From sequence record OP168898.1: DNA of 64,000 bases; one strand, given 5' to 3'. This DNA is from Escherichia phage ZCEC14. Positions within the stretch are counted from its first letter, which is position 1; the number at the start of each line of letters is the position of its first letter. The notes below the pieces were generated by a model. It was not told the origin of the DNA and did no database searches. It saw nothing but the letters and a program-made list of their open reading frames with translations. The position numbers were made by a program, and so were the translations under genes. Positions 23,827 through 47,766 of the stretch are shown here, piece by piece.

Positions 23827-24551
23827 ATGAAACTAATCTTTTTAAGTGGTGTAAAGCGTAGTGGAAAAGATACTACTGCAGATTTTATCATGAATAATTA
23901 TTCTGCAGCTAAATATCAACTTGCTGGTCCTATTAAAGATGCATTGGCTTATGCATGGGGCGTGTTTGCTGCAAACACTGACTATCCTTGCTTAACTCGT
24001 AAAGAGTTTGAAGGAATTGACTATGATCGTGAGACTAATTTAAATCTGACTAAATTAGAAGTAATCACGATTATGGAACAAGCATTTTGCTATCTTAATG
24101 GTAAAAGCCCAATTAAGGGTGTGTTTGTTTTTGATGACGAAGGACAAGAATCAGTTAATTCCGTAGCATTTAACAAGATTATTGACGTTATAAATAATAT
24201 TGAAGATCAATGGTCAGTCCGTCGTCTGATGCAAGCCCTAGGTACGGATTTGATTGTTAATAACTTCGACCGCATGTATTGGGTAAAATTATTTGCTTTA
24301 GATTATCTTGATAAATTTAACTCAGGTTATGATTATTATATCGTTCCTGATACCCGTCAAGATCATGAAATGGATGCGGCTAGGGCGATGGGTGCTACAG
24401 TAATTCATGTAGTTCGTCCTGGTCAAAAATCCAATGATACACATATTACAGAAGCTGGATTGCCAATTCGTGATGGCGATTTAGTAATTACAAACGATGG
24501 TTCTCTTGAAGAACTTTTTTCTAAAATTAAAAATACACTAAAGGTACTATA

Positions 24552-24552
<1 letters not shown>
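23827..24552 (+). CDS. 1: Deoxynucleoside monophosphate kinase
   Basis: 241 aa as T4 gp1; P-loop GVKRSGKDT; middle-promoter-like motif upstream. Confidence 0.9.
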
Positions 24553-25237
<685 letters not shown>

Positions 25238-25249
25238 TTTCACAAAGTT

Positions 25250-25282
25250 GTTTACATACTGATGAGGTAGTGATACTATTAT
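25250..25282 (+). promoter_or_regulatory. T4-type early promoter (GTTTACA -35, TGATACTAT -10-like)
   Basis: GTTTACA at 25250-25256, -10-like at 25271-25279, followed by RBS and ATG 25310. Confidence 0.6.
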
Positions 25283-25309
25283 CTCATCAAAATTAATTAG
25301 GAAAATAAA

Positions 25310-25618
25310 ATGAAAACATTTAAAGAATTTATCAATGAAGCGGCTGCGCCAAAGACATTCGTTATTAATACTCAGACGAGTCTTGACGATGAGTATGCAG
25401 AGGCAATTCTGAAGTCACTTGCTAAGAACGGCGTTGAAGTAATCGCTTCGGACTTTAAGAAAGGGGCTTCCGAGATGTTTATTTCTATAACTAAAGGATC
25501 TAAAGCTAAGATCAAATCATCATTCGGAGTTGCTCGTACCGATCAAATCGACAATCATGACTTTAAACAAACTGGCGTTAAACGGCAGAACACAATTGCA
25601 TCACGCGGAATAAAATAG
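25310..25618 (+). CDS. Internal-protein-like ORF with capsid targeting leader (MKTFKEFINEA)
   Basis: N-terminal leader resembles T4 ip CTS MKTYQEFIAEA; basic 102-aa protein; cassette promoter upstream. Confidence 0.7.
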   Translation: MKTFKEFINEAAAPKTFVINTQTSLDDEYAEAILKSLAKNGVEVIASDFKKGASEMFISITKGSKAKIKSSFGVARTDQIDNHDFKQTGVKRQNTIASRGIK

Positions 25619-25627
25619 TTTATAAAC

Positions 25628-25658
25628 CGTTTACTTTTAGATGGGGTAGTGATACTAT
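25628..25658 (+). promoter_or_regulatory. T4-type early promoter (cassette copy 2)
   Basis: GTTTAC 25628-25633 and GTGATACTATTACCCTATCAACTACTGAGGAGAATAAAATG module. Confidence 0.6.
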
Positions 25659-25686
25659 TACCCTATCAACTACTGAGGAGAATAAA

Positions 25687-25910
25687 ATGAAAACATCTAA
25701 AGAATTTATTGTAGAAGCTAAAAGACGCGAAGACGAACTGCCTTTTGTTTCAAAAACCTTTGATGGAACATTGTCTGATTTTAAAAAATTCCTAATGATA
25801 AACTTGCTAAATTGGTTGGTTCTATCAGTGAAAAAGGTGGCAAGGTCACATTTTCTGCTCAAGGTGTTGCCAATCTTAAAAAACTTTTGAAAGCCGCTGG
25901 TGTTGAATAA
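25687..25910 (+). pseudogene. CTS-leader gene (MKTSKEFIVEA) interrupted by a -1 frameshift at an A6 run
   Basis: Frame 1 ORF 25687-25890 ends in low-complexity tail; frame 0 from 25785 to stop 25908-25910 encodes KIPNDKLAKLVGSISEKGGKVTFSAQGVANLKKLLKAAGVE; A7 instead of A6 at 25783-25788 would fuse them. Confidence 0.55.
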
Positions 25911-25916
25911 ATCGTT

Positions 25917-25947
25917 TACATAGGGTTTTAGTTGTGATACTATTACC
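25917..25947 (+). promoter_or_regulatory. T4-type early promoter (cassette copy 3)
   Basis: GTTTACA 25917-25923, TGATACTAT -10-like, same RBS module before ATG 25972. Confidence 0.6.
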
Positions 25948-25971
25948 CTATCAACTACTGAGGAGAATAAA

Positions 25972-26157
25972 ATGAAACGTTGTGAATTAATTCGAAATGT
26001 TGCTATTGCAATTTCTGCTTCCGCTTTTAGTTTTTCAATGTTTGTTGGATTTATATGTGGATTATTAACTACAGCAGAAAATGTGTTTTCACTTGTAGTA
26101 GCATTTTTAATTGGTTTAATTGCTATCGTTATGGATAAAATTTCTAAAGGTGAATAG
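25972..26157 (+). CDS. Small hydrophobic membrane protein (61 aa)
   Basis: Two predicted TM segments; driven by the cassette promoter/RBS but lacks the CTS leader. Confidence 0.55.
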   Translation: MKRCELIRNVAIAISASAFSFSMFVGFICGLLTTAENVFSLVVAFLIGLIAIVMDKISKGE

Positions 26158-26158
26158 A

Positions 26159-26539
26159 ATGTATAAAGTGTACGCGGATTATCAGGCTAATCCATCTGAA
26201 AAGCCAGGTTGTCAAATTGGATGGGCTCATGATACTTTACTTGAAGCAGTAGATGCTGCTCAAAAATTGGGATATAAATATGTAGAGATTGTTCAACCGT
26301 CAGGAAAAGTTATTACTCTTGAAGAGTTCAATAACATTAAACCGAACTTTTTACTTTTTGCAGGTGATAATTATTATCCTCGTGGTGGATATGCTGATTT
26401 AATCGCGAAAGCCGCCACTGAAGATGAACTCCGTGACATTATCAAAGAAAATGAAAACAAACCAGATTATGGTTCCAATCGCTTTGATTGGTGGCAAATT
26501 GTAAATGCCAATACGCATACTATTGTTGATGAAGGTTGA
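26159..26539 (+). CDS. Hypothetical protein (126 aa)
   Basis: ATG 26159 immediately after stop of preceding ORF; ORF-track start at 26120 overlaps upstream gene. Confidence 0.55.
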   Translation: MYKVYADYQANPSEKPGCQIGWAHDTLLEAVDAAQKLGYKYVEIVQPSGKVITLEEFNNIKPNFLLFAGDNYYPRGGYADLIAKAATEDELRDIIKENENKPDYGSNRFDWWQIVNANTHTIVDEG

Positions 26540-26829
26540 TAATGATTCTTTATGCTAAAGTATCGTCTATTGAAAATGGATATAAATATGATCAAGACGC
26601 GGCTAAAGCCTTGATTGATGATTATGGCATTTTAACATGTTTTGAAGTTGAAAAAGTTTATATTGACCGTTCATCTTCTCAAGTTAAATTAGTGAAAGAA
26701 GACCGTAAATTTAACACAGTTAACTTTGATTTCTTTATTGAAACGGAAAAAGGTCCTCTTGAATATGATATTTTCAAGAATCCTTTGGGTCTTGAATGTA
26801 TCGTAAATACGTATCATCATAAATGGTAA
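26536..26829 (+). CDS. Hypothetical protein (97 aa)
   Basis: ATGA start/stop overlap with preceding ORF; phage-like codon usage. Confidence 0.55.
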   Translation: MIMILYAKVSSIENGYKYDQDAAKALIDDYGILTCFEVEKVYIDRSSSQVKLVKEDRKFNTVNFDFFIETEKGPLEYDIFKNPLGLECIVNTYHHKW

Positions 26830-26926
26830 ATATGCTTTAAGAATTATTTGTTATTATTAACTCATACCGCACTGATTAATACCCTCTATCATCAAGGGTT
26901 CTTGTTTGAGAGCCTTTGTTAATAAT

Positions 26927-26999
26927 TGGGAATTAGCCAAGTTGGTAAGGCACTGGATTTTGATTCCAGGATGCAAAGGTTCGAGTCCTTTATTCCCAG
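26927..26999 (+). tRNA. tRNA-Gln (anticodon UUG)
   Basis: Acceptor TGGGAAT/ATTCCCA, anticodon loop TTTTGAT, T-arm GGTTCGAGTCC. Confidence 0.85.
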
Positions 27000-27000
27000 C

Positions 27001-27087
27001 GCGAGAATGGTCAAATTGGTAAAGGCACAGCACTTAAAATGCTGCGGAATGATTTCCTTGTGGGTTCGAGTCCCACTTCTCGCACCA
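27001..27087 (+). tRNA. tRNA-Leu (anticodon UAA), class II with long variable arm, CCA encoded
   Basis: Acceptor GCGAGAA/TTCTCGC, anticodon loop CTTAAAA, T-arm GGTTCGAGTCC, 3' ACCA. Confidence 0.85.
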
Positions 27088-27092
27088 AATTT

Positions 27093-27166
<74 letters not shown>

Positions 27167-27176
27167 ATTTAATTTA

Positions 27177-27250
27177 CTCCGTGTAGCTCAGTTTGGTAGA
27201 GCGCCTGATTTGGGATCAGGAGGTCCAAGGTTCAAATCCTTGTATGGAGA
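27177..27250 (+). tRNA. tRNA-Pro (anticodon UGG)
   Basis: D-arm TAGCTCAGTTTGGTAGAGC, anticodon loop TTTGGGA, T-arm GGTTCAAATCC; no encoded CCA. Confidence 0.8.
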
Positions 27251-27252
27251 CT

Positions 27253-27342
27253 GGAGGCGTGGCAGAGTGGTTTAATGCACCGGTCTTGAAAACCGGCAGT
27301 CGCTCCGGCGACTCATAGGTTCAAATCCTATCGCCTCCGCCA
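27253..27342 (+). tRNA. tRNA-Ser (anticodon UGA), class II, CCA encoded
   Basis: Acceptor GGAGGCG/CGCCTCC, anticodon loop CTTGAAA, long variable arm, T-arm GGTTCAAATCC. Confidence 0.85.
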
Positions 27343-27347
27343 GTTTT

Positions 27348-27423
27348 GCTGATTTAGCTCAGTAGGTAGAGCAACTCACTTGTAATGAGAAGGTCGGCGG
27401 TTCGATTCCGTCAATCAGCACCA
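27348..27423 (+). tRNA. tRNA-Thr (anticodon UGU)
   Basis: Acceptor GCTGATT/AATCAGC, anticodon loop CTTGTAA, T-arm GGTTCGATTCC, 3' ACCA. Confidence 0.85.
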
Positions 27424-27424
27424 A

Positions 27425-27499
27425 GGCCCTGTAGCTGGAAGGTTCAAGCAAGCGACTCATAATCGCCAGATGGTGGTTCAATTCCACCCAGGGCCACCA
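27425..27499 (+). tRNA. tRNA-Ile (anticodon CAU, presumably lysidine-modified; tRNA-Met not excluded)
   Basis: Acceptor GGCCCTG/CAGGGCC, anticodon loop CTCATAA, T-arm GGTGGTTCAATTCCACC, 3' ACCA; position matches T4 tRNA-Ile. Confidence 0.7.
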
Positions 27500-27511
27500 A
27501 ATTATGAATTA

Positions 27512-27598
27512 GGGGAGTTATCCCGTAGAGGTAGCGGTGTGGACTGTAAATCCATTGTCATTGCGACTCGGGTGGTTCGACTCCATCACTCCCCACCA
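27512..27598 (+). tRNA. tRNA-Tyr (anticodon GUA), class II with long variable arm
   Basis: Acceptor GGGGAGT/ACTCCCC perfect 7 bp, anticodon loop CTGTAAA, variable stem GTC-ATTGC-GAC, T-arm GGTGGTTCGACTCCATC, 3' ACCA. Confidence 0.7.
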
Positions 27599-27602
27599 AT
27601 TT

Positions 27603-27677
27603 GGATGTGTAGCTCAATGGCAGAGCGATCGCCTGTTAAGCGATTGGTTATAGGTTCGAATCCTATCACGTCCGCCA
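27603..27677 (+). tRNA. tRNA-Asn (anticodon GUU)
   Basis: Acceptor GGATGTG/CACGTCC, D-arm GCTCAATGGCAGAGC, anticodon loop CTGTTAA, T-arm AGGTTCGAATCCT, 3' GCCA. Confidence 0.75.
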
Positions 27678-27681
27678 AATC

Positions 27682-27757
27682 CGAGGCATAGCTCAGAAGG
27701 AAGAGCAAGGACCTTCTAAGTCCTGGGTCGTAGGTTCGATCCCTACTGCCTCGACCA
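27682..27757 (+). tRNA. tRNA-Arg (anticodon UCU)
   Basis: Acceptor CGAGGCA/TGCCTCG, D-arm TAGCTCAGAAGGAAGAGC, anticodon loop CTTCTAA, T-arm GGTTCGATCCC, 3' ACCA. Confidence 0.85.
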
Positions 27758-27775
27758 ATTATAAGTGAGGAAAAT

Positions 27776-28126
27776 ATGAAAGGTAATGTTTATTTAGTAG
27801 TTCATGATTTAACATTCTATTTTAATCATAATGATACTGTTATTTCTGAACGTGTAATTAATTTACTTTATCAGCATGCAGATTATGTTTATGTTGAAAA
27901 CGAATTTGGACATTGGCAATTTATTAAAAATCGTTCATTTGGTTTAGATGGTTACGAATATTTTGAACGTAAAGACCTTTTAGATAAAATTCCGTTATCT
28001 ACACAATATCAAAATCATAAGTCTTTATATAAATGTCGGCTAATTCGAAATGCTGAATCTGCGTATGAAGCAATTGATTTATGGCGTAAACGCCGTGAAC
28101 AGATTGATGCTTTAAAAGAATATTAA
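27776..28126 (+). CDS. Hypothetical protein (116 aa)
   Basis: ORF with RBS GAGGAAAAT immediately after tRNA-Arg; analogous to T4 tRNA.x ORFs by position. Confidence 0.55.
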   Translation: MKGNVYLVVHDLTFYFNHNDTVISERVINLLYQHADYVYVENEFGHWQFIKNRSFGLDGYEYFERKDLLDKIPLSTQYQNHKSLYKCRLIRNAESAYEAIDLWRKRREQIDALKEY

Positions 28127-28485
28127 GAAACCGGGTCGCTACCGGTAAGTCGTCGGACTGATGTTCCCTGAGTAAGGACTAGCATTAACAAATCTTTGCG
28201 ATTGGTTAATGCCCCCTTACATCACAGCAGAAACGGCGCACCGAATTATCGATTCGAGGAAATATCTTTGCCGTAAGCCGAGTAGCGTTTTTGACGGAAC
28301 GTTCGGATATGGTCGAGATATGGCCTTTTAAAAATATTGAGTAGCGTCAACTGCTTAATAACCGGGTTCGAATCCCGGCGTTTCGTACAAACACTTGCCT
28401 TAGCAGGTGGAACCCCGACAAGGTTGCCGCAAGGCTTAGCCCCGACCGAAAGGTTGGGGCTTTTTAGTTTGAATCATATAGAGAA
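28127..28485 (+). ncRNA. Candidate structured non-coding RNA(s) with tRNA-like T-arm motif and strong terminal hairpin
   Basis: About 350 nt without a credible ORF; GC-rich helices (ACCGGGTCGCTACCGGT; CCGGGTTCGAATCCCGG at 28362-28378); ends in terminator 28438-28465. Confidence 0.35.
28438..28465 (+). terminator. Rho-independent terminator
   Basis: AGCCCC-GACCGAAAGGTT-GGGGCT hairpin followed by TTTTT. Confidence 0.75.
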
Positions 28486-28555
28486 TGCTGTTACGGATAA
28501 TAACAAAGTAATAAATAATTAATAACCAACCGATAAATTATTTCAAGGATTTTAA

Positions 28556-29119
28556 ATGAAAACCTATGCCGAATTTTTAACCGAAGCAGCAAAATTACCA
28601 TCTGAAGCAGATCTTACTAAAGTATTCTTCCAATTGGACCCCAAAGACCGTGGTGATTTTCTTAAGTGGAAAGCTAAAGCTATTGAAATGTATAACATTG
28701 ATAATAGTTCTTTTACGATGAGTCAAGAAAATAAATTCAATAAAGCATTTTTCAAAATTTCTAAGAAATTGGCATCTGGCACTCAGGTTCCTAAATCTGC
28801 CTTAGCTACTCCTGAACGTGCACCTGTTAAAATTTCTAAGAATATGTTTGACACTAAAAAATATGTCAATGCTTTGAATAAAGCTCTTGATGCATTGGAT
28901 GATGCAAAGAAGGCAGCTCGTGATCTTCAAGACGTGTACACCGATTTTGATCGTAAAACTAAAGGTTCTATTTCAAATAGCGAACGCAATAGTGTAAGTG
29001 TTTATTCCGATAGCCTTGATGTTCTTGGCGATGCGTATACTGAAATTAAAAATCGTATTAACACTGCATCTAAGCTAAAAGCTGCTGCCGAAGCTATAAT
29101 AACTAAACTAGGTAAATAA
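28556..29119 (+). CDS. Internal-protein-like ORF with CTS leader (MKTYAEFLTEA), 187 aa
   Basis: N-terminal leader matches T4 ip CTS pattern; lysine/alanine-rich helical protein; terminator downstream. Confidence 0.65.
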   Translation: MKTYAEFLTEAAKLPSEADLTKVFFQLDPKDRGDFLKWKAKAIEMYNIDNSSFTMSQENKFNKAFFKISKKLASGTQVPKSALATPERAPVKISKNMFDTKKYVNALNKALDALDDAKKAARDLQDVYTDFDRKTKGSISNSERNSVSVYSDSLDVLGDAYTEIKNRINTASKLKAAAEAIITKLGK

Positions 29120-29127
29120 TTTTAAAT

Positions 29128-29152
29128 CCCTATCTAAATGATAGGGCTTTTT
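29128..29152 (+). terminator. Rho-independent terminator
   Basis: CCCTATC-TAAAT-GATAGGG hairpin followed by CTTTTT. Confidence 0.75.
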
Positions 29153-29274
29153 GGTATCTAGGCCTTTCTGGACCTCTCTAGGCATCATTTAGTTTCTACC
29201 CTTTATAATATATTATCCTATCTTTTAATTGCCCCTCCCTGCTCTAGAATTCCCTAAAATTTTTTTCACAAAAC

Positions 29275-29305
29275 GGTTTACATCCCTGTTCTTCCATGGT
29301 ACTAT
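29275..29305 (+). promoter_or_regulatory. T4-type early promoter
   Basis: GTTTAC 29275-29280 and GGTACTATA -10-like; upstream TTCCCTAAAATTTTTTTCACAAA element shared with promoter at 57941-57978. Confidence 0.55.
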
Positions 29306-29348
29306 ACAACTATCAACTACTGATACAGAAAACAACTTGGAGAATAAA

Positions 29349-29612
29349 ATGGATAATTACGGCGAACTGTTCAACTTCTTTATGAAATGCGTTTCAGAAG
29401 ATTTCGGTCGTACAGTGAATGATATTAAAGTTATCGGTCCTGACCATCCGATGTTTGAAACTTACGCAGTAATGGGTAATGAAGACGGTCAGTGGTATAC
29501 TGTAAAGGTTGTGATTAACATGTTCACTGCTGAAGGTTATGTTAAACTGTCTTCTAAAGTTTACCATGATAACGATGAAATCGCAGAAGAATATTTCAAT
29601 AATATGAAATAA
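29349..29612 (+). CDS. Hypothetical protein (87 aa)
   Basis: ATG 29349 preceded by GGAGAATAAAATG cassette RBS; ORF-track start at 29229 lies upstream of the promoter. Confidence 0.6.
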   Translation: MDNYGELFNFFMKCVSEDFGRTVNDIKVIGPDHPMFETYAVMGNEDGQWYTVKVVINMFTAEGYVKLSSKVYHDNDEIAEEYFNNMK

Positions 29613-29680
29613 TTGTGTACAAACACCAAGGATGGTGTTATTATAGACTTATCAAAACAAATACAGAAACGGAGAAATAA

Positions 29681-29857
29681 ATGACTACTTTAATTATTTG
29701 GTTTGACGAAAATGAAGAAACATACTGCGTGAACATTGGCGAAAGTCCAATGCCAGAATTTGAATCTTCAGATAAAAACTCGGTTGTATCTTGGGCTGAA
29801 GGTTATAAAGCAGCAAAAGGCGATGTTGAAATAGTTTACAAACTATCCGGAGTATAA
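29681..29857 (+). CDS. Hypothetical small protein (58 aa)
   Basis: ATG 29681 with RBS GGAGAAATAA; below the ORF-track length cutoff. Confidence 0.45.
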   Translation: MTTLIIWFDENEETYCVNIGESPMPEFESSDKNSVVSWAEGYKAAKGDVEIVYKLSGV

Positions 29858-31855: not shown

Positions 31856-33096
<1,241 letters not shown>

Positions 33097-33107
33097 TTGT
33101 TTACTTC

Positions 33108-33130
33108 CTCCAAGGGTTTTGATATTATAC
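33108..33130 (+). promoter_or_regulatory. T4-type early promoter
   Basis: GTTTAC 33108-33113, GATATTATA -10; drives truncated denV-like ORF. Confidence 0.5.
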
Positions 33131-33155
33131 ATTCATCAACTACTTGGAGGAAATT

Positions 33156-33296
33156 ATGACCCGTATCAATTTAACACTTGTTTCTGAATTGACCGACCAA
33201 CATCTTATGGCTGAGTATCGTGAATTACCACGCGTATTTGGTGCAGTCCGTGAACATGTTCAAAACGGTTTACGCTTAAGTATTAATATGGTATAA
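33156..33296 (+). pseudogene. Truncated duplicate of denV 5' end (46 codons)
   Basis: Encodes [46 protein letters not shown], matching the first ~35 residues of denV at 34306 before diverging to a stop; same upstream TACTTGGAGG RBS. Confidence 0.7.
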
Positions 33297-33325
33297 TTAC
33301 TCTATCAAAACAAACAAGGAAACAC

Positions 33326-33904
33326 ATGAAAACATATCAAGAATTTATTGCCGAAGCTTCTGTAGTAAAGGCCAAAGGTATTAATAAAGATGAGTGGACC
33401 TACCGATCGGGAAACGGCTTTGACCCTAAAACAGCTCCTATTGAACGGTACTTAGCTACAAAGGCTTCCGACTTTAAAGCTTTCGCTTGGGAAGGACTTC
33501 GCTGGCGTACCGATCTAAATATTGAAGTTGATGGGCTTAAATTTGGCCATATTCAGGATGTTGTTGCTAGTAACTTAGACGCAGCTTTTGTTAAAGCCGA
33601 CGGTGACCTTCGTCGCTGGAATTTAAAACTGTTCTCTAAACAGAAAGGCCCGGTGTTTGTGCCTAAAGCTGGTAAATGGGTTATTGATAACAAATTAGCT
33701 AAGGCTGTCAACTACGCTGGTCTTGAATTTGCCAAGCATAAATCATCATGGAAAGGTCTTGATGCAATGGCTTTCCGTAAAGAATTTGCTGATGTTATGG
33801 CTAAAGGCGGCTTTAAGGCAGAACTAGATACCTCTAAAGGTACGTTTAAAGACGCTAATGTTCAGTACGCTTACGCCGTTGCTAATGCAGCCCGTAATTC
33901 CTAA
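33326..33904 (+). CDS. ipIII: Internal protein III
   Basis: 192 aa with MKTYQEFIAEA CTS leader; sequence recognised as T4 IPIII-like; position next to ipII/denV. Confidence 0.85.
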   Translation: MKTYQEFIAEASVVKAKGINKDEWTYRSGNGFDPKTAPIERYLATKASDFKAFAWEGLRWRTDLNIEVDGLKFGHIQDVVASNLDAAFVKADGDLRRWNLKLFSKQKGPVFVPKAGKWVIDNKLAKAVNYAGLEFAKHKSSWKGLDAMAFRKEFADVMAKGGFKAELDTSKGTFKDANVQYAYAVANAARNS

Positions 33905-33945
33905 TAAAGCTAATACTCAGACCTATTTACATTTAAAGGAAACAT

Positions 33946-34248
33946 ATGAAAACATATCAAGAATTTATTACTGAAGCGCGAGTGAGTGCAGGTAAATTAG
34001 AAGCCGCTATAAATAAAAAGGCCCATTCATTTCATGATTTGTCCGATAAAGACCGTAAGAAACTTGTAAGCCTTTATATTGACAAAGAGCGTATTCTCGC
34101 TCTTCCTGGCGCTAATGAAGGTAAACAGGCCAAGCCTTTGAATGCTGTCGAAAAGAAAATTGATAACTTTGCTTCTAAATTCGGTATGTCTATGGATGAC
34201 CTTCAGCAAGCGGCTATCGAAGCAGCTAAAGTAATTAAAGGTAAATAA
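33946..34248 (+). CDS. ipII: Internal protein II
   Basis: 100 aa with MKTYQEFITEA leader; size and position as T4 IPII. Confidence 0.85.
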   Translation: MKTYQEFITEARVSAGKLEAAINKKAHSFHDLSDKDRKKLVSLYIDKERILALPGANEGKQAKPLNAVEKKIDNFASKFGMSMDDLQQAAIEAAKVIKGK

Positions 34249-34250
34249 CA

Positions 34251-34282
34251 GTTTACTTTCTCCTAGAATTGTGATAGTATAA
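34251..34282 (+). promoter_or_regulatory. T4-type early promoter for denV
   Basis: GTTTAC 34251-34256, TGATAGTATAAT extended -10, RBS TGGAGGGGTAAAATG. Confidence 0.6.
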
Positions 34283-34305
34283 TCATAATTACTTGGAGGG
34301 GTAAA

Positions 34306-34722
34306 ATGACTCGTATTAATTTGACTTTAGTATCTGAACTTGCTGATCAACATTTAATCGCGGAATACCGTGAATTGCCACGTGTTTTTGGTATAATTCG
34401 TAAACACGTGGCAAATGGTAAACGGGTTAAAGATTTTAAAATATCTTCCGAGTTTATTTTAGGTTCTGGTCATGTTACGTTCTTTTACGATAAGTTAGAA
34501 TTTTTGCGAAAGCGTCAATCAGACATTATAACGGAATGCTTAAAACGCGGGTTTAGTATAAAAGATACTGAAGTTCCTGATATCAGTGATATTCCAGTAG
34601 AATGGAAAAATGATTATAATCCATGCAAATCAGCTATTAAGTTGAGTCAACAACGACTCGATGAAAAAATTTTAATGAAGCCGCACTGGTATAAGTATTA
34701 CGGCAAAAATATTTACATTTAA
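34306..34722 (+). CDS. denV: Endonuclease V (pyrimidine dimer DNA glycosylase / AP lyase)
   Basis: 138 aa as T4 DenV; N-terminus [17 protein letters not shown]...[10 protein letters not shown] recognised. Confidence 0.9.
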
Positions 34723-36860: not shown

Positions 36861-36863
36861 CTG

Positions 36864-36893
36864 TTTACTTTTCCTCTTGACTGTGGTATAATT
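36864..36893 (+). promoter_or_regulatory. T4-type early promoter for regB
   Basis: GTTTAC 36864-36869, TGGTATAAT extended -10 at 36885-36893, RBS AAGAGGAGAACAACATG. Confidence 0.65.
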
Positions 36894-36919
36894 TTTCTAT
36901 CAGTTAAGAGGAGAACAAC

Positions 36920-37381
36920 ATGACTATCAACACAGAAGTTTTTATCCGTCGAAATAAGCTCCGTCGTCACTTTGAGTCGGAGTTTCGTCAAATTAACAAT
37001 GAGATTCGTGAGGCATCAAAAGCAGCAGGAGTCTCATCGTTTCATCTAAAATATTCTCAGCATCTTCTTGACCGCGCAATTCAACGGGAGATTGATGAGA
37101 CATACGTTTTTGAATTATTCCATAAAATAAAAGACCATGTTTTAGAAGTTAATGAATTCCTAAGTATGCCTCCGCGTCCTGACATTGACGAGGATTTTAT
37201 TGATGGGGTTGAATATCGTCCTGGACGTTTAGAAATCACAGATGGAAATCTTTGGCTTGGATTTACAGTTTGTAAACCTAACGAGAAGTTCAAAGACCCG
37301 TCACTTCAATGTAGGATGGCAATTATCAACAGTCGTCGTTTACCAGGAAAGGCTTCTAAAGCAGTAATTAAAACTCAATGA
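36920..37381 (+). CDS. regB: Site-specific endoribonuclease RegB
   Basis: 153 aa as T4 RegB; basic N-terminus; position between vs block and denV side. Confidence 0.8.
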   Translation: MTINTEVFIRRNKLRRHFESEFRQINNEIREASKAAGVSSFHLKYSQHLLDRAIQREIDETYVFELFHKIKDHVLEVNEFLSMPPRPDIDEDFIDGVEYRPGRLEITDGNLWLGFTVCKPNEKFKDPSLQCRMAIINSRRLPGKASKAVIKTQ

Positions 37382-45261: not shown

Positions 45262-45292
45262 GTTTACAAGCATAAAGCTTTATGGTACTATA
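45262..45292 (+). promoter_or_regulatory. T4-type early promoter
   Basis: GTTTACA 45262-45268, TGGTACTATA -10-like, RBS GGGGGAATAAAATG. Confidence 0.6.
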
Positions 45293-45326
45293 CAACTATC
45301 AACTGATGTGGATTTGGGGGAATAAA

Positions 45327-45476
45327 ATGAAAACTACGTTAATTGAAGTAAAAAAGTTGATTGACACAGAAGAGATTTCAGCTTGTTTTGAAAATTTCTT
45401 AGAAGATGCAACTGAAGATAACGCAGTTTATCTCGCTCAGAAAATTATAGAAACATATTTGGAGCAGAATCAATGA
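45327..45476 (+). CDS. Hypothetical small acidic protein (49 aa)
   Basis: ATG 45327 after cassette RBS; ORF-track start 45282 lies upstream of the promoter -10. Confidence 0.45.
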   Translation: MKTTLIEVKKLIDTEEISACFENFLEDATEDNAVYLAQKIIETYLEQNQ

Positions 45477-45736
45477 CAGTTTACGTAGATGTTTTAATGA
45501 ATCATGGATGGAAACTTCGCGGTCATCCAACTAAAAATTGTCATATGTTCACTGATGGAGATATTGAAGAGCTTCATGAAATGGCAGAAGCAATAGGAAT
45601 GAAACGCTCTTGGTTTCAAGATAAACGCATTAAACATTATGACTTACACGCGCGCCGCCGCCAAAAAGCCGTAGAACTTGGAGCTGTAGAAGTATCTCGT
45701 CGCGAAGCAGTAAAAATTTGGCGAACATTAAAATAA
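45473..45736 (+). CDS. Hypothetical protein (87 aa)
   Basis: ATGA overlap; basic C-terminus. Confidence 0.5.
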   Translation: MTVYVDVLMNHGWKLRGHPTKNCHMFTDGDIEELHEMAEAIGMKRSWFQDKRIKHYDLHARRRQKAVELGAVEVSRREAVKIWRTLK

Positions 45737-45739
45737 ATT

Positions 45740-45769
45740 GTTTACAGTAGGGTAGTAGTGTGATACTAT
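45740..45769 (+). promoter_or_regulatory. T4-type early promoter
   Basis: GTTTACA 45740-45746, GTGATACTATTACCCTATCAA module as in CTS cassette. Confidence 0.6.
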
Positions 45770-45805
45770 TACCCTATCAAAACAAATGTGAAATTGGAGA
45801 ATAAA

Positions 45806-46774
45806 ATGAAAACTGTAACTATCAATAAGGGTATCTACTTCGGTAAAGAAATCTCTGGAACTTTTGAGCTCTTAGGCGAATGGTTCCCAGATAATGCTCC
45901 GGTAGATGCACAAGGAGATGGTAAAGTTTTTGTTGAAATTGACGGTAAACGTCGCGGTGTTTGGGTTTACAAATCAGATATTTCATATGATGGTGTAAAA
46001 GTTGAAGAAGTTAAAGAATCATATGAAGATATGAAAACCCGCATTAATAAAAGATTTAATGTTATGGGAATGATGACGAATGGTATTATTAATGGAAATA
46101 TTCGTTCATTGATTATCTCTGGCGCAGCAGGTATTGGTAAAACGTATTCTTTAGATAAAGCTTTAAATAAAGCAAATGATAATGGATACATTGAATATAA
46201 AAGCATTAACGGTAAAATCTCTGGTATTGGTCTTTATGAACAGCTTTGGAATAATCGTGAAGAGAATTCTGTCCTTTTGATTGATGATGTGGATGTTTTC
46301 TCTGATATGGACATTCTTAATCTTCTAAAAGCTGCTCTGGACACTGGAGAGACCCGTAAAGTCTGCTGGAGCACTGCATCTTCTTACTTAGAAGAAAAAG
46401 GCATTGACCGTGAGTTTGAATTTAAAGGAACGATTGTTTTTATCACAAACGTTGACATTGACCGCGAATTAGACCGTGGTACTAAACTTGCTCCACATTT
46501 ACAAGCATTAGTGTCCCGCTCAGTTTATTTAGATTTGGGTGTTCACACTAATGAAGAAATTATGGTCAGGGTTGAAGATGTTATTCTTTCAACTGACATG
46601 ATGCAAAAGCGCGGTCTTTCTGATGAAGAAACTTATAAAGCATTATCATGGATGAAAGTTAATGTTAATCGTTTACGCAATGTTTCACTGCGTACTGCTC
46701 TTTATCTTGCTGACTTTATTATGACCGACAAAAACGGTTGGGAAGAAATTGCTGAGGTTACTCTTCTGAAATAA
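45806..46774 (+). CDS. P-loop ATPase (AAA-like), about 322 aa
   Basis: Walker A GAAGIGKTYS and Walker B VLLIDDVDVF; ATG 45806 after cassette RBS. Confidence 0.6.
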   Translation: MKTVTINKGIYFGKEISGTFELLGEWFPDNAPVDAQGDGKVFVEIDGKRRGVWVYKSDISYDGVKVEEVKESYEDMKTRINKRFNVMGMMTNGIINGNIRSLIISGAAGIGKTYSLDKALNKANDNGYIEYKSINGKISGIGLYEQLWNNREENSVLLIDDVDVFSDMDILNLLKAALDTGETRKVCWSTASSYLEEKGIDREFEFKGTIVFITNVDIDRELDRGTKLAPHLQALVSRSVYLDLGVHTNEEIMVRVEDVILSTDMMQKRGLSDEETYKALSWMKVNVNRLRNVSLRTALYLADFIMTDKNGWEEIAEVTLLK

Positions 46775-47180: not shown

Positions 47181-47211
47181 GTTTACAAGACTGTTCCTCT
47201 GTGGTACTATA
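47181..47211 (+). promoter_or_regulatory. T4-type early promoter
   Basis: GTTTACA 47181-47187, GGTACTATACAACTATCAACTAC module, RBS GGAGGAACAGAAAATG. Confidence 0.6.
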
Positions 47212-47238
47212 CAACTATCAACTACGGAGGAACAGAAA

Positions 47239-47766
47239 ATGAACGCTAAAGATATTTTCAACTTGGTAAATTACAACGATGGCAAATTTAAATCTGAAGC
47301 GCAAAGCAAGTTCTTTAACGACATCTCAATCGGAGGTGAAATCACTGTTGATGGAGGACAAATTTACAAATCCCGTTGGAATTGGATCGTTATTATTGAT
47401 GAGATCGGTATTGTAGAAATTTACAAGAATACGAATAAAAATCGTACATTACACTGGTCTCGTGATACTAACGAACAGTACAAAAAGGATAAAGCATCTA
47501 AAATGTCTCGTGTAACTCAAGAAGATATTGAGTTCATCAAGAAAGATATTTTAATGTATGATAACTTAATTGCTGAAGAGCAAGCTGTTATTGATAAATT
47601 TGACGAGATTAAAGCTTCTCGTGAAATTCCTGATTTTATGAAAGAATCAGTAAATGAACGATACTCTCTCATTTCAGAGCGTATTGAAACTTACAAAAAG
47701 CAAAGAGCTGAACGCCAAAATACTCTTCGGAAGTTTGAAGAACGGTTAAAGACGGTACTCGCATAA
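47239..47766 (+). CDS. Hypothetical protein with C-terminal coiled coil (175 aa)
   Basis: ORF directly after early promoter. Confidence 0.55.
   Translation: MNAKDIFNLVNYNDGKFKSEAQSKFFNDISIGGEITVDGGQIYKSRWNWIVIIDEIGIVEIYKNTNKNRTLHWSRDTNEQYKKDKASKMSRVTQEDIEFIKKDILMYDNLIAEEQAVIDKFDEIKASREIPDFMKESVNERYSLISERIETYKKQRAERQNTLRKFEERLKTVLA

Follow-up and report, generated by a model that had tools for sequence, protein, structure and literature searches.

Repeated early-promoter units as probable crossover joints for internal-protein cassettes at the ipI-type locus of Escherichia phage ZCEC14

Upstream of its tRNA cluster, in the interval from gene 57B to trna.4, Escherichia phage ZCEC14 carries an ipI-type internal-protein (IP) locus whose repeated expression units very probably serve as crossover joints for IP cassettes. 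We analysed a 64,000-nt stretch of DNA (record OP168898.1; hereafter the window), which is a segment of a Tequatrovirus (T4-like) genome in the orientation opposite to the T4 map. Three observations made here underlie this reading: the anatomy of the units, the polymorphism of the locus among related phages, and the positions of the recombination junctions. The phenomenon itself is already known (Repoila et al. 1994, and later work on promoter-early stem-loop [PeSL] cassettes) and is ordinary for T4-like phages. What is new is minor: an unrecorded combination of cassettes, a frameshifted ip8, and a reconstructed history of the junctions.

Gene 1 (dNMP kinase; 23827–24552) and 57A (24552–24782) precede gene 57B (24779–25237, + strand), a conserved anchor at the left end of the locus, which was assigned from the T4 annotation and a match to phrog_755 (E = 5e-68) and whose protein is identical to T4 57B in a six-frame comparison. 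There follow, all on the + strand, unit 1 (25240–25309, extending to about 25312), ip7 (25310–25618; 102 aa), unit 2 (25619–25686, to about 25689), ip8 (25687–25910; interrupted by a 1-nt deletion), unit 3 (25911–25971, to about 25974), and the conserved right anchor trna.4 (25972–26157; phrog_1692). The units, which were delimited by early-promoter pattern matching and RNA folding, bracket ip7 and ip8, with repeats on both sides of the IP open reading frames (ORFs) from 57B to trna.4, and they lie where the first-pass annotation of this DNA had placed its modules. Farther downstream are trna.3, trna.2, and ten tRNA genes (26927–27757). An Rfam E-value search of positions 24500–29700 returned only tRNAs and no family over the units.

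All three copies have a -35 box GTTTAC, a 15-nt spacer, and TGATACTAT, with a TG-extended -10 box TACTAT. For unit 1, the -35 box is at 25250–25255, the TG at 25271–25272, the -10 box at 25274–25279, a predicted hairpin at 25260–25289, and the ribosome-binding site (RBS) AGGAAA at about 25298–25303. The corresponding elements of unit 2 are at 25629–25634, 25650–25651, 25653–25658, and 25640–25667, with the RBS GAGGAG at 25675–25680; those of unit 3 are at 25914–25919, 25935–25936, 25938–25943, and 25920–25951 (a hairpin whose 5' arm differs), with GAGGAG at 25960–25965. Either form of the RBS is followed by AATAAAATG. These promoters conform to the T4 early-promoter pattern GTTTAC-N14-16-TRNTANNWT, which occurs at 14 sites in the window, 14 of 14 on the + strand (that of early transcription), against an expectation of 0.39. 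Generic sigma-70-like sites were not enriched (18 versus 16.7 expected), and finding the promoters needed the T4-specific pattern. The late-promoter motif TATAAATA is absent from 25236–25990.

The more distant variants of the module proposed in the first pass, at 29275 (29276 in our count), 45262, 45740, and 47181, are 4 of the 14 early-promoter sites, all with coordinates on the + strand. One is an early promoter with an RBS (29276–29351) upstream of an ORF equal to T4 e.8, and two border an insertion at nrdC.11/nrdC.10, on its left edge (45262–45329) and, upstream of nrdC.10, on its right edge (45740–45808). The fourth lies upstream of nrdC.8 (47181–47241); its spacer pairs with the RBS, and its fold reaches -23.2 kcal/mol (z = -6.32). 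Only the unit at 45740, which has a hairpin of -19.6 kcal/mol (z = -4.48), shares the IP-type core TGATACTATTACCCTATCAA outside the ipI locus; in its narrower form TGATACTATTAYCYYATCAA, the core is limited to position 45761 and the three copies at the ipI locus.

The similarity of the three units is uneven. The 41-mer GTGATACTATTACCCTATCAACTACTGAGGAGAATAAAATG occurs exactly at 25649–25689 and 25934–25974 (0 occurrences expected by chance), so that units 2 and 3 match at 41 of 41 positions, and they are 86 per cent identical over 71 nt. A search for the same 41-mer with up to three mismatches returned these two sites only and did not recover unit 1. The unit 1 copy (25245–25312) has 74–82 per cent identity to the other copies over selected sub-segments only; aligned without gaps in a 60-nt frame with GTTTAC as its anchor, it is 60 per cent identical to units 2 and 3. 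For comparison, any two early promoters in the window have a mean identity of 53–55 per cent in a gapless 60-nt frame, and the trio at 29276, 45262, and 47181 reaches 70–75 per cent mutual identity in such a frame. The first-pass description of three near-identical modules thus holds for units 2 and 3 but is overstated for unit 1, whose 60 per cent lies in the range of early promoters generally. Because unit 1 is no closer to the other two than unrelated early promoters are, much of the 'module' is promoter consensus and not a purpose-built site of recombination; the units are largely generic T4 early-promoter consensus.

Each unit is predicted to fold into a hairpin; its 5' arm is part of the promoter spacer, and its 3' arm extends from the -10 box to about +1. 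Folding energies are -14.8 kcal/mol for unit 1 (z = -4.25), -16.1 kcal/mol for unit 2 (z = -2.78), and -14.2 kcal/mol for unit 3 (z = -2.10). Most of 51 unique units from related phages are also hairpin-capable, with varied arm sequences that include GGGTA/TACCC, GGGCT/AGCCC, GGGTT/AACCC, and GGTCT/AGACC. When pairs were counted over 45 unique units with registers mixed, 72.4 per cent of cells were paired in register one versus 71.4 per cent in shuffles; in the other register of the same mixed set, cells changed on both sides numbered 16 versus 8.5, a modest excess that 1 of 500 shuffles reached. The stems are AT-rich and contain G·U pairs, and in a terminator scan the hairpins, which have no T-run, were not scored as terminators. 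Since a transcript from a unit's own promoter would start at or past the 3' arm, the hairpin could form solely in RNA reading through from upstream, where it may act as an attenuator or a processing signal.

Behind the units lie unrelated cargos, as had been proposed. Cargo 1 is Ip7: it groups with RB15 Ip7 (Z35082.1) in one family and has a hit to phrog_2667 'internal head protein' (E = 5e-41); cargo 2 is Ip8. The resemblance of the two proteins is confined to an 11-residue leader, already recognized in the first pass and fitting a capsid-targeting sequence, which reads MKTFKEFINEA in Ip7 and MKTSKEFIVEA in Ip8 and is encoded by DNA identical at 27 of 33 positions. Their mature parts gave no BLASTP match to each other even at E <= 100. 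The Ip7 leader (MKTFKEFINE/A, with the slash at the cut) contains the gp21-type site I-N-E, and that of Ip8 (MKTSKEFIVE/A) fits the L/I-x-E cleavage rule of gp21 (PMC9026906). Across the loci studied, 48 distinct leaders give the consensus M-K-(T/S)-(Y/F)-x-E-F-(I/L)-x-E-(A/S). The Ser4 of the Ip8 leader is atypical, being present in 1 of those 48. Position 4 of the leader is reported to be important for targeting. Pfam has no family for Ip7, Ip8, or Trna.4.

The ip8 sequence matches 105 records, including RB15 ip8, with the best match in VEc74 (99.5 per cent); among the matches listed, the alignment spans about 222 nt in every relative versus 221 nt in the window. Alignment with ip8 of VEc74, UFV-AREG1, and RB15 places a 1-nt deletion at 25783–25788, where A7 has become A6. 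As written, ip8 encodes 67 aa (25687–25890) and ends out of frame, and the native frame resumes in the -1 (+2) frame, with its TAA at 25908–25910. The intact VEc74 homologue matches phrog_8765 'internal virion protein'. The gene in ZCEC14 is either inactivated by the A7-to-A6 change or mis-sequenced. We considered a programmed frameshift, as a -1 slip of tRNA-Lys on A6 would restore the native protein exactly, and disfavour it: a stimulatory element is lacking and all relatives carry A7, which makes a mutation or a homopolymer sequencing error the simpler reading. The interruption went unmentioned in the first-pass annotation.

The third ORF is, as first described, a predicted membrane protein of 61 aa that has no leader. 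This protein, Trna.4, is identical to its T4 counterpart, is found in nearly all relatives, and is listed in the UFV-AREG1 annotation as a predicted membrane protein. It is a conserved right flank of the locus and not a swappable IP cargo.

Among relatives, the flanking genes are conserved, whereas the number, identity, and order of the cargos are not. We added 36 loci, located via 57B in viral contigs, to obtain 37 resolved related loci; their 57B–trna.4 intervals hold 0–5 cargos from about 15 families in varying order. T4 has IpI alone and G8 has Ip7 alone; HMD-9 and SYGD1 have Ip9-Ip7, P922 has IpI-Ip7, RB15 and VEc74 have Ip5-Ip9-Ip7-Ip8, and UFV-AREG1 has IpI-Ip9-Ip7-Ip8. Order differs as well, with Ip8-Ip9 in distant phages (loci L017 and L019–L022) versus Ip9-Ip7-Ip8 in RB15. 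Megablast found 890 related phage records, 0 of which are collinear with the window across the entire 57B–tRNA stretch, and the allele 57B-Ip7-Ip8-trna.4 has no collinear record among 50,697 phage records; single-piece matches of the allele in that collection begin at 25266, within unit 1. The first-pass proposal that cargo genes are swapped at this locus is borne out by this comparison, and the cargos do not keep one order in close relatives. The RBS and leader variants AATTAATTAGGAAAATAAAATG, CTACTGAGGAGAATAAAATG, and AACAAATG(A/T)G(T/A)GA(T/A)TTGGAGAATAAAATG precede different cargos in different phages, so the units, too, are mosaics. Several distant relatives have adjacent IP genes that lack a promoter between them and still vary. 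Shuffling therefore does not depend on the promoter part, and the RBS and leader alone can serve as the shared joint.

Comparison with eight relatives places the breakpoints inside the promoter/RBS/leader units, in keeping with the first-pass expectation of module-bounded breakpoints. Two collinear blocks relate the window to VEc74, one ending at 25330 and the other starting at 25266, so that the overlap consists of unit 1 and the first leader codons. The left half of unit 1 follows the 57B-proximal unit (ip5/ipI-type) up to GATGAGG, and from TATTATCTC on its right half matches the ip7-type unit; the crossover falls in the shared GTAGTGATACTATTA, an approximately 15-nt core that comprises the -10 box and the hairpin loop. 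Judged by its sequence, unit 1 is a two-parent chimera. G8 carries the same chimeric unit and is otherwise the same as the window but lacks exactly one repeat unit of 285 bp, with a crossover that may lie anywhere in the approximately 46 nt common to units 2 and 3. T4 leaves the window at 25331, in leader codon 7, and rejoins it at 25914, in the -35 box of unit 3. Together with the variation in cargos, these junctions support the first-pass inference of modular shuffling at the T-even ipI locus.

Chaining the whole 64-kb window against T4 gave 21 structural breaks, and 2 of the 21 differences have both edges in units, namely the ipI locus and the junction of nrdC.11 with nrdC.10. The latter is a 458-bp insertion of two ORFs relative to T4 (45336–45793) with the duplicated joint GGAGAATAAAATGAAAAC. 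The ipIII difference from T4 has one edge in a unit. Within the early region, 5 of 38 break edges lie in units versus 4 per cent expected (binomial P-value = 0.018). Many of the other differences are homing-endonuclease genes that are missing here (segC, the I-TevII intron, mobC, mobB, and segB). Exchange in the window is enriched at units, which nevertheless constitute a minority route.

The mechanism that we favour follows from the arrangement of the locus: because the same 60–100 bp of promoter, RBS, and leader precede unrelated bodies, T4 homologous recombination can cross over between units. Each gene in the interval has its own unit, with a T4 early promoter presumably read by the host sigma-70 RNA polymerase and a strong RBS 6–8 nt before the ATG. 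The IP cargos open with a capsid-targeting sequence of about 10 residues, MKT(Y/F)xEF(I/L)xE, which would direct the protein into the prohead core and be cut off after Glu10 by the gp21 protease (PMC9026906; PMC3012670); the mature IP would then be injected with the DNA, and characterized IPs inhibit type IV (GmrSD) restriction enzymes. Promoter activity, packaging with cleavage, and anti-restriction function are taken from the literature in this account. A crossover within one genome would produce an unequal exchange that deletes or duplicates a whole cassette, a crossover between co-infecting phages would replace a cassette, and every exchange would leave each cargo with a working expression unit. 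The Ip7-Ip8 allele of ZCEC14 would then be a longer IpI/Ip5–Ip9–Ip7–Ip8 array minus its first two cassettes, lost when unit 1 recombined within its -10 core.

Other origins of the pattern have to be weighed against this one. The repeats might be convergent expression signals that play no special part, with cassettes exchanged through illegitimate recombination or homing-endonuclease repair. The 60 per cent identity of unit 1 to units 2 and 3, which is the same as the background between early promoters, agrees with such a view, as do the 19 of 21 T4 differences that are not unit-bounded on both sides and the several that coincide with segC, I-TevII, mobC, mobB, and segB. We nevertheless consider it unlikely, since convergence would not explain why unit 1 is a clean two-parent chimera that switches in a shared core, why G8 differs by exactly one repeat unit, or why the divergence of T4 starts in the leader and ends at the -35 box of unit 3; moreover, units 2 and 3 share their 41 identical nucleotides even at non-consensus leader positions, and break edges are enriched in units. 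Descent of the whole array from one ancestral IP gene and its promoter by tandem duplication, with bodies diverging while promoter and leader were kept, would account for the leader and upstream signals common to all cargos, and an ancient duplication could have seeded the array. As an explanation of the present array it is very improbable: the mature regions of Ip7 and Ip8 have no detectable similarity, and identity falls sharply at leader codons 7–11; a given cargo family can have different neighbours and a different place in the order from phage to phage; leader and RBS variants have been exchanged independently of cargo; and the same type of unit precedes Trna.4, a protein other than an IP.

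Site-specific exchange is a further candidate, in which the hairpin at the -10 box would be a recognition or cleavage site, for example as a cruciform that endonuclease VII or some unknown factor cuts, in the manner of an integron; in another version, cassettes would excise as small circles and reinsert instead of being exchanged passively by homology. All three units, and most related ones, do have hairpins with arms of varied sequence, the unit 1 crossover falls at the hairpin loop and the -10 box, and PeSL mini-circles have been shown in RB49/phi1 (PMC2839356). The crossover interval of unit 1 is, however, the longest identical stretch between the parental units, and other junctions lie in the RBS or the leader, away from the hairpin, for which covariation support is weak. 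There is also no recombinase gene at the locus, where each neighbouring ORF is a T4 orthologue (gene 1, 57A, 57B, trna.4 to trna.2, and the tRNAs). We regard site-specific exchange as quite improbable and retain homologous crossover between the units as the preferred explanation. For the same reasons of gene content, the likeness to integron gene cassettes does not extend to an integrase and attC-type sites.

Repoila, Tétart, Bouet, and Krisch reportedly described in 1994 that the IP loci of T-even phages are flanked by repeats. As far as that work (Repoila et al. 1994; EMBO J 13:4181) is represented where it is cited in PMC2839356 and PMC4122927, the correspondence with ZCEC14 is close. It concerns the same 57B–trna.4 locus and the same cargos, ip7 and ip8 (ip8 at 92–99 per cent DNA identity), with an early promoter and stem-loop of about 70 bp on both sides of the ORFs, an 11-residue leader, and ORFs polymorphic in number, order, and identity; in both, junctions lie in the repeats or the leader (here versus G8, VEc74, UFV-AREG1, T4, and others). 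The RB15 record Z35082.1 annotates ip5, ip9, ip7, and ip8 between 57B and tRNA.4. The window allele differs in its lack of collinearity with the phage records searched and in the deletion within ip8.

The phenomenon was later generalized as PeSLs (Arbiol et al. 2010; PMC2839356), a link that Comeau et al. (2014; PMC4122927) repeat, and PeSL cassettes have been described from RB49/phi1, PST/T4, and nt-1/KVP40 (Arbiol et al. 2010; Comeau et al. 2014). Like PeSLs, the ZCEC14 units run from a stop codon through an AT-rich stretch, -35 and -10 boxes, a stem-loop between or over the boxes, and a Shine–Dalgarno sequence to the ATG; they flank small non-essential ORFs, with crossovers between the -10 box and the ATG and with insertions and deletions of whole ORFs. 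Unlike PeSLs in the strict sense, which have a sigma-70-consensus promoter and a terminating G/C-rich stem, the units are of the T4-early type, AT-rich, and not terminator-like, and terminator activity and mini-circles have been shown for RB49/phi1 and not for IP units. T-even IP elements, which have T4-type early promoters, have been called analogues and not homologues of PeSLs, with stems that are weaker, AT-richer, and devoid of polyG/polyC (PMC2839356). The units work like PeSLs but are outside the PeSL family.

The cargos likewise resemble T4 IPI, IPII, and IPIII as a non-essential, variable set of small basic proteins with an N-terminal capsid-targeting sequence of about 10 aa followed by an L/I-x-E gp21 site (PMC9026906). 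Beyond the leader, neither Ip7 nor Ip8 resembles these proteins in sequence, and Pfam contains no match to either. A canonical capsid-targeting leader, MKTYAEFLTE/A, also opens a 187-aa ORF (28556–29119) at a third site, flanked by the tRNA/rnaC-rnaD cluster and e.8. This ORF represents a 659-bp insertion relative to T4 that is bounded by a duplicated terminator-like hairpin (28438–28468 and 29128–29155), not by promoter units. ZCEC14 may carry IP cargo beyond the two canonical IP loci, although we offer the 187-aa ORF only as a tentative third-site candidate. Unit-mediated shuffling has been suggested to keep IP genes within two loci (PMC2839356). If the 187-aa protein is packaged and injected, that suggestion would be incomplete, and any repeated signal, whether promoter, RBS-leader, or terminator, could be a cassette joint.

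For ZCEC14 itself, the practical gain is a corrected annotation (ip7, a frameshifted ip8, and trna.4 as a gene other than IP cargo) and a history of the allele, and current understanding of such loci is unchanged. For T-even phages, the IP cassettes would constitute an injected anti-restriction arsenal, in which a distinct GmrSD type IV restriction enzyme is inhibited by each of Ip1, Ip2, and Ip3 (PMC12373910). The set of IPs that a phage carries would help to decide which hosts it can infect, and the repeated expression units would explain how that set can be reshuffled quickly.

In ip8 (25687–25910), the second of the two internal-protein (IP) genes at the ipI-type locus between 57B and trna.4, an A-run has six residues (25783–25788), compared to seven in all related records, and the gene is therefore frameshifted. 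Apart from this change, ip8 is 99.5 per cent identical to its counterpart in the related phage VEc74. The leader of ip8 has Ser at position 4 of the capsid-targeting sequence (CTS), a residue found in only one of forty-eight distinct leaders. The A6 tract could mark a recent pseudogene, could be a homopolymer sequencing error, or could belong to a gene that ribosomal slippage (−1) at the A-run rescues at a low level.

The second IP locus (32800–34722) has an extra IP gene (32815–33096; phrog_3499) that begins within the last part of e. After it comes a diverged, approximately 74 per cent identical duplicate of part of denV, made up of the promoter and ~46 codons from the start of the gene (33087–33296). 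This partial copy stops at the −35 element of the ipIII promoter (33268), and downstream of it lie ipIII, ipII, and the real denV (34306–34722). The arrangement looks like the footprint of an imported cassette that brought with it part of its previous neighbor.

A CTS is also found outside of the two classical IP loci. Specifically, a 187-aa ORF (28556–29119) with the canonical leader MKTYAEFLTEA is situated between the tRNA/rnaC–rnaD region and e.8. T4 lacks this ORF, and the window carries a 659-bp insertion there relative to T4; a terminator-like hairpin present as a single copy in T4 is duplicated at both edges of the insertion (28438–28468 and 29128–29155). The ORF matches phrog_2280 (unknown function), and it is labeled 'hypothetical' in the phage records listed, at least 117 of which span most of the query stretch. 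Another insertion relative to T4, located between nrdC.11 and nrdC.10 (45336–45793), encodes two ORFs, of 49 aa (phrog_6888) and 87 aa (phrog_4887). An early-promoter/RBS unit borders it on each side, and the duplicated joint is GGAGAATAAAATGAAAAC.

In trna.3 (26161–26357), no similarity to the T4 gene is detectable at the DNA level over the N-terminal half, whereas the flanks on either side are 92–98 per cent identical; judged from this pattern, trna.3 is an intragenic mosaic. The T4-type trna.3 is present in phage P922. The tRNA cluster (26927–28126) comprises ten genes (Gln, Leu, Gly, Pro, Ser, Thr, Met[CAT], Tyr, Asn, and Arg), compared to eight in T4, lacks the segB of T4, and has a 116-aa ORF (27776–28126; phrog_3355) after tRNA-Arg. 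When the whole window is compared with T4, most T4-specific segments prove to be homing-endonuclease genes that the window lacks, namely segC, mobC, mobB, and the I-TevII intron of nrdD; the mobD region is replaced.

At several early promoters (33099–33168, 36863–36935, and 47181–47241), the downstream Shine–Dalgarno sequence is complementary to the −35/−10 spacer, as exemplified by the spacer/Shine–Dalgarno pairs TTCCTCCAAG/CTTGGAGGAA (z = −3.0) and CTGTTCCTC/GAGGAACAG (z = −6.3). Due to this complementarity, the RBS would be sequestered in read-through transcripts only and would remain free in RNA initiated at the proximal promoter. Translational control is known for T4 gene e, and the sequestration predicted for the early promoters of the window is reminiscent of it.
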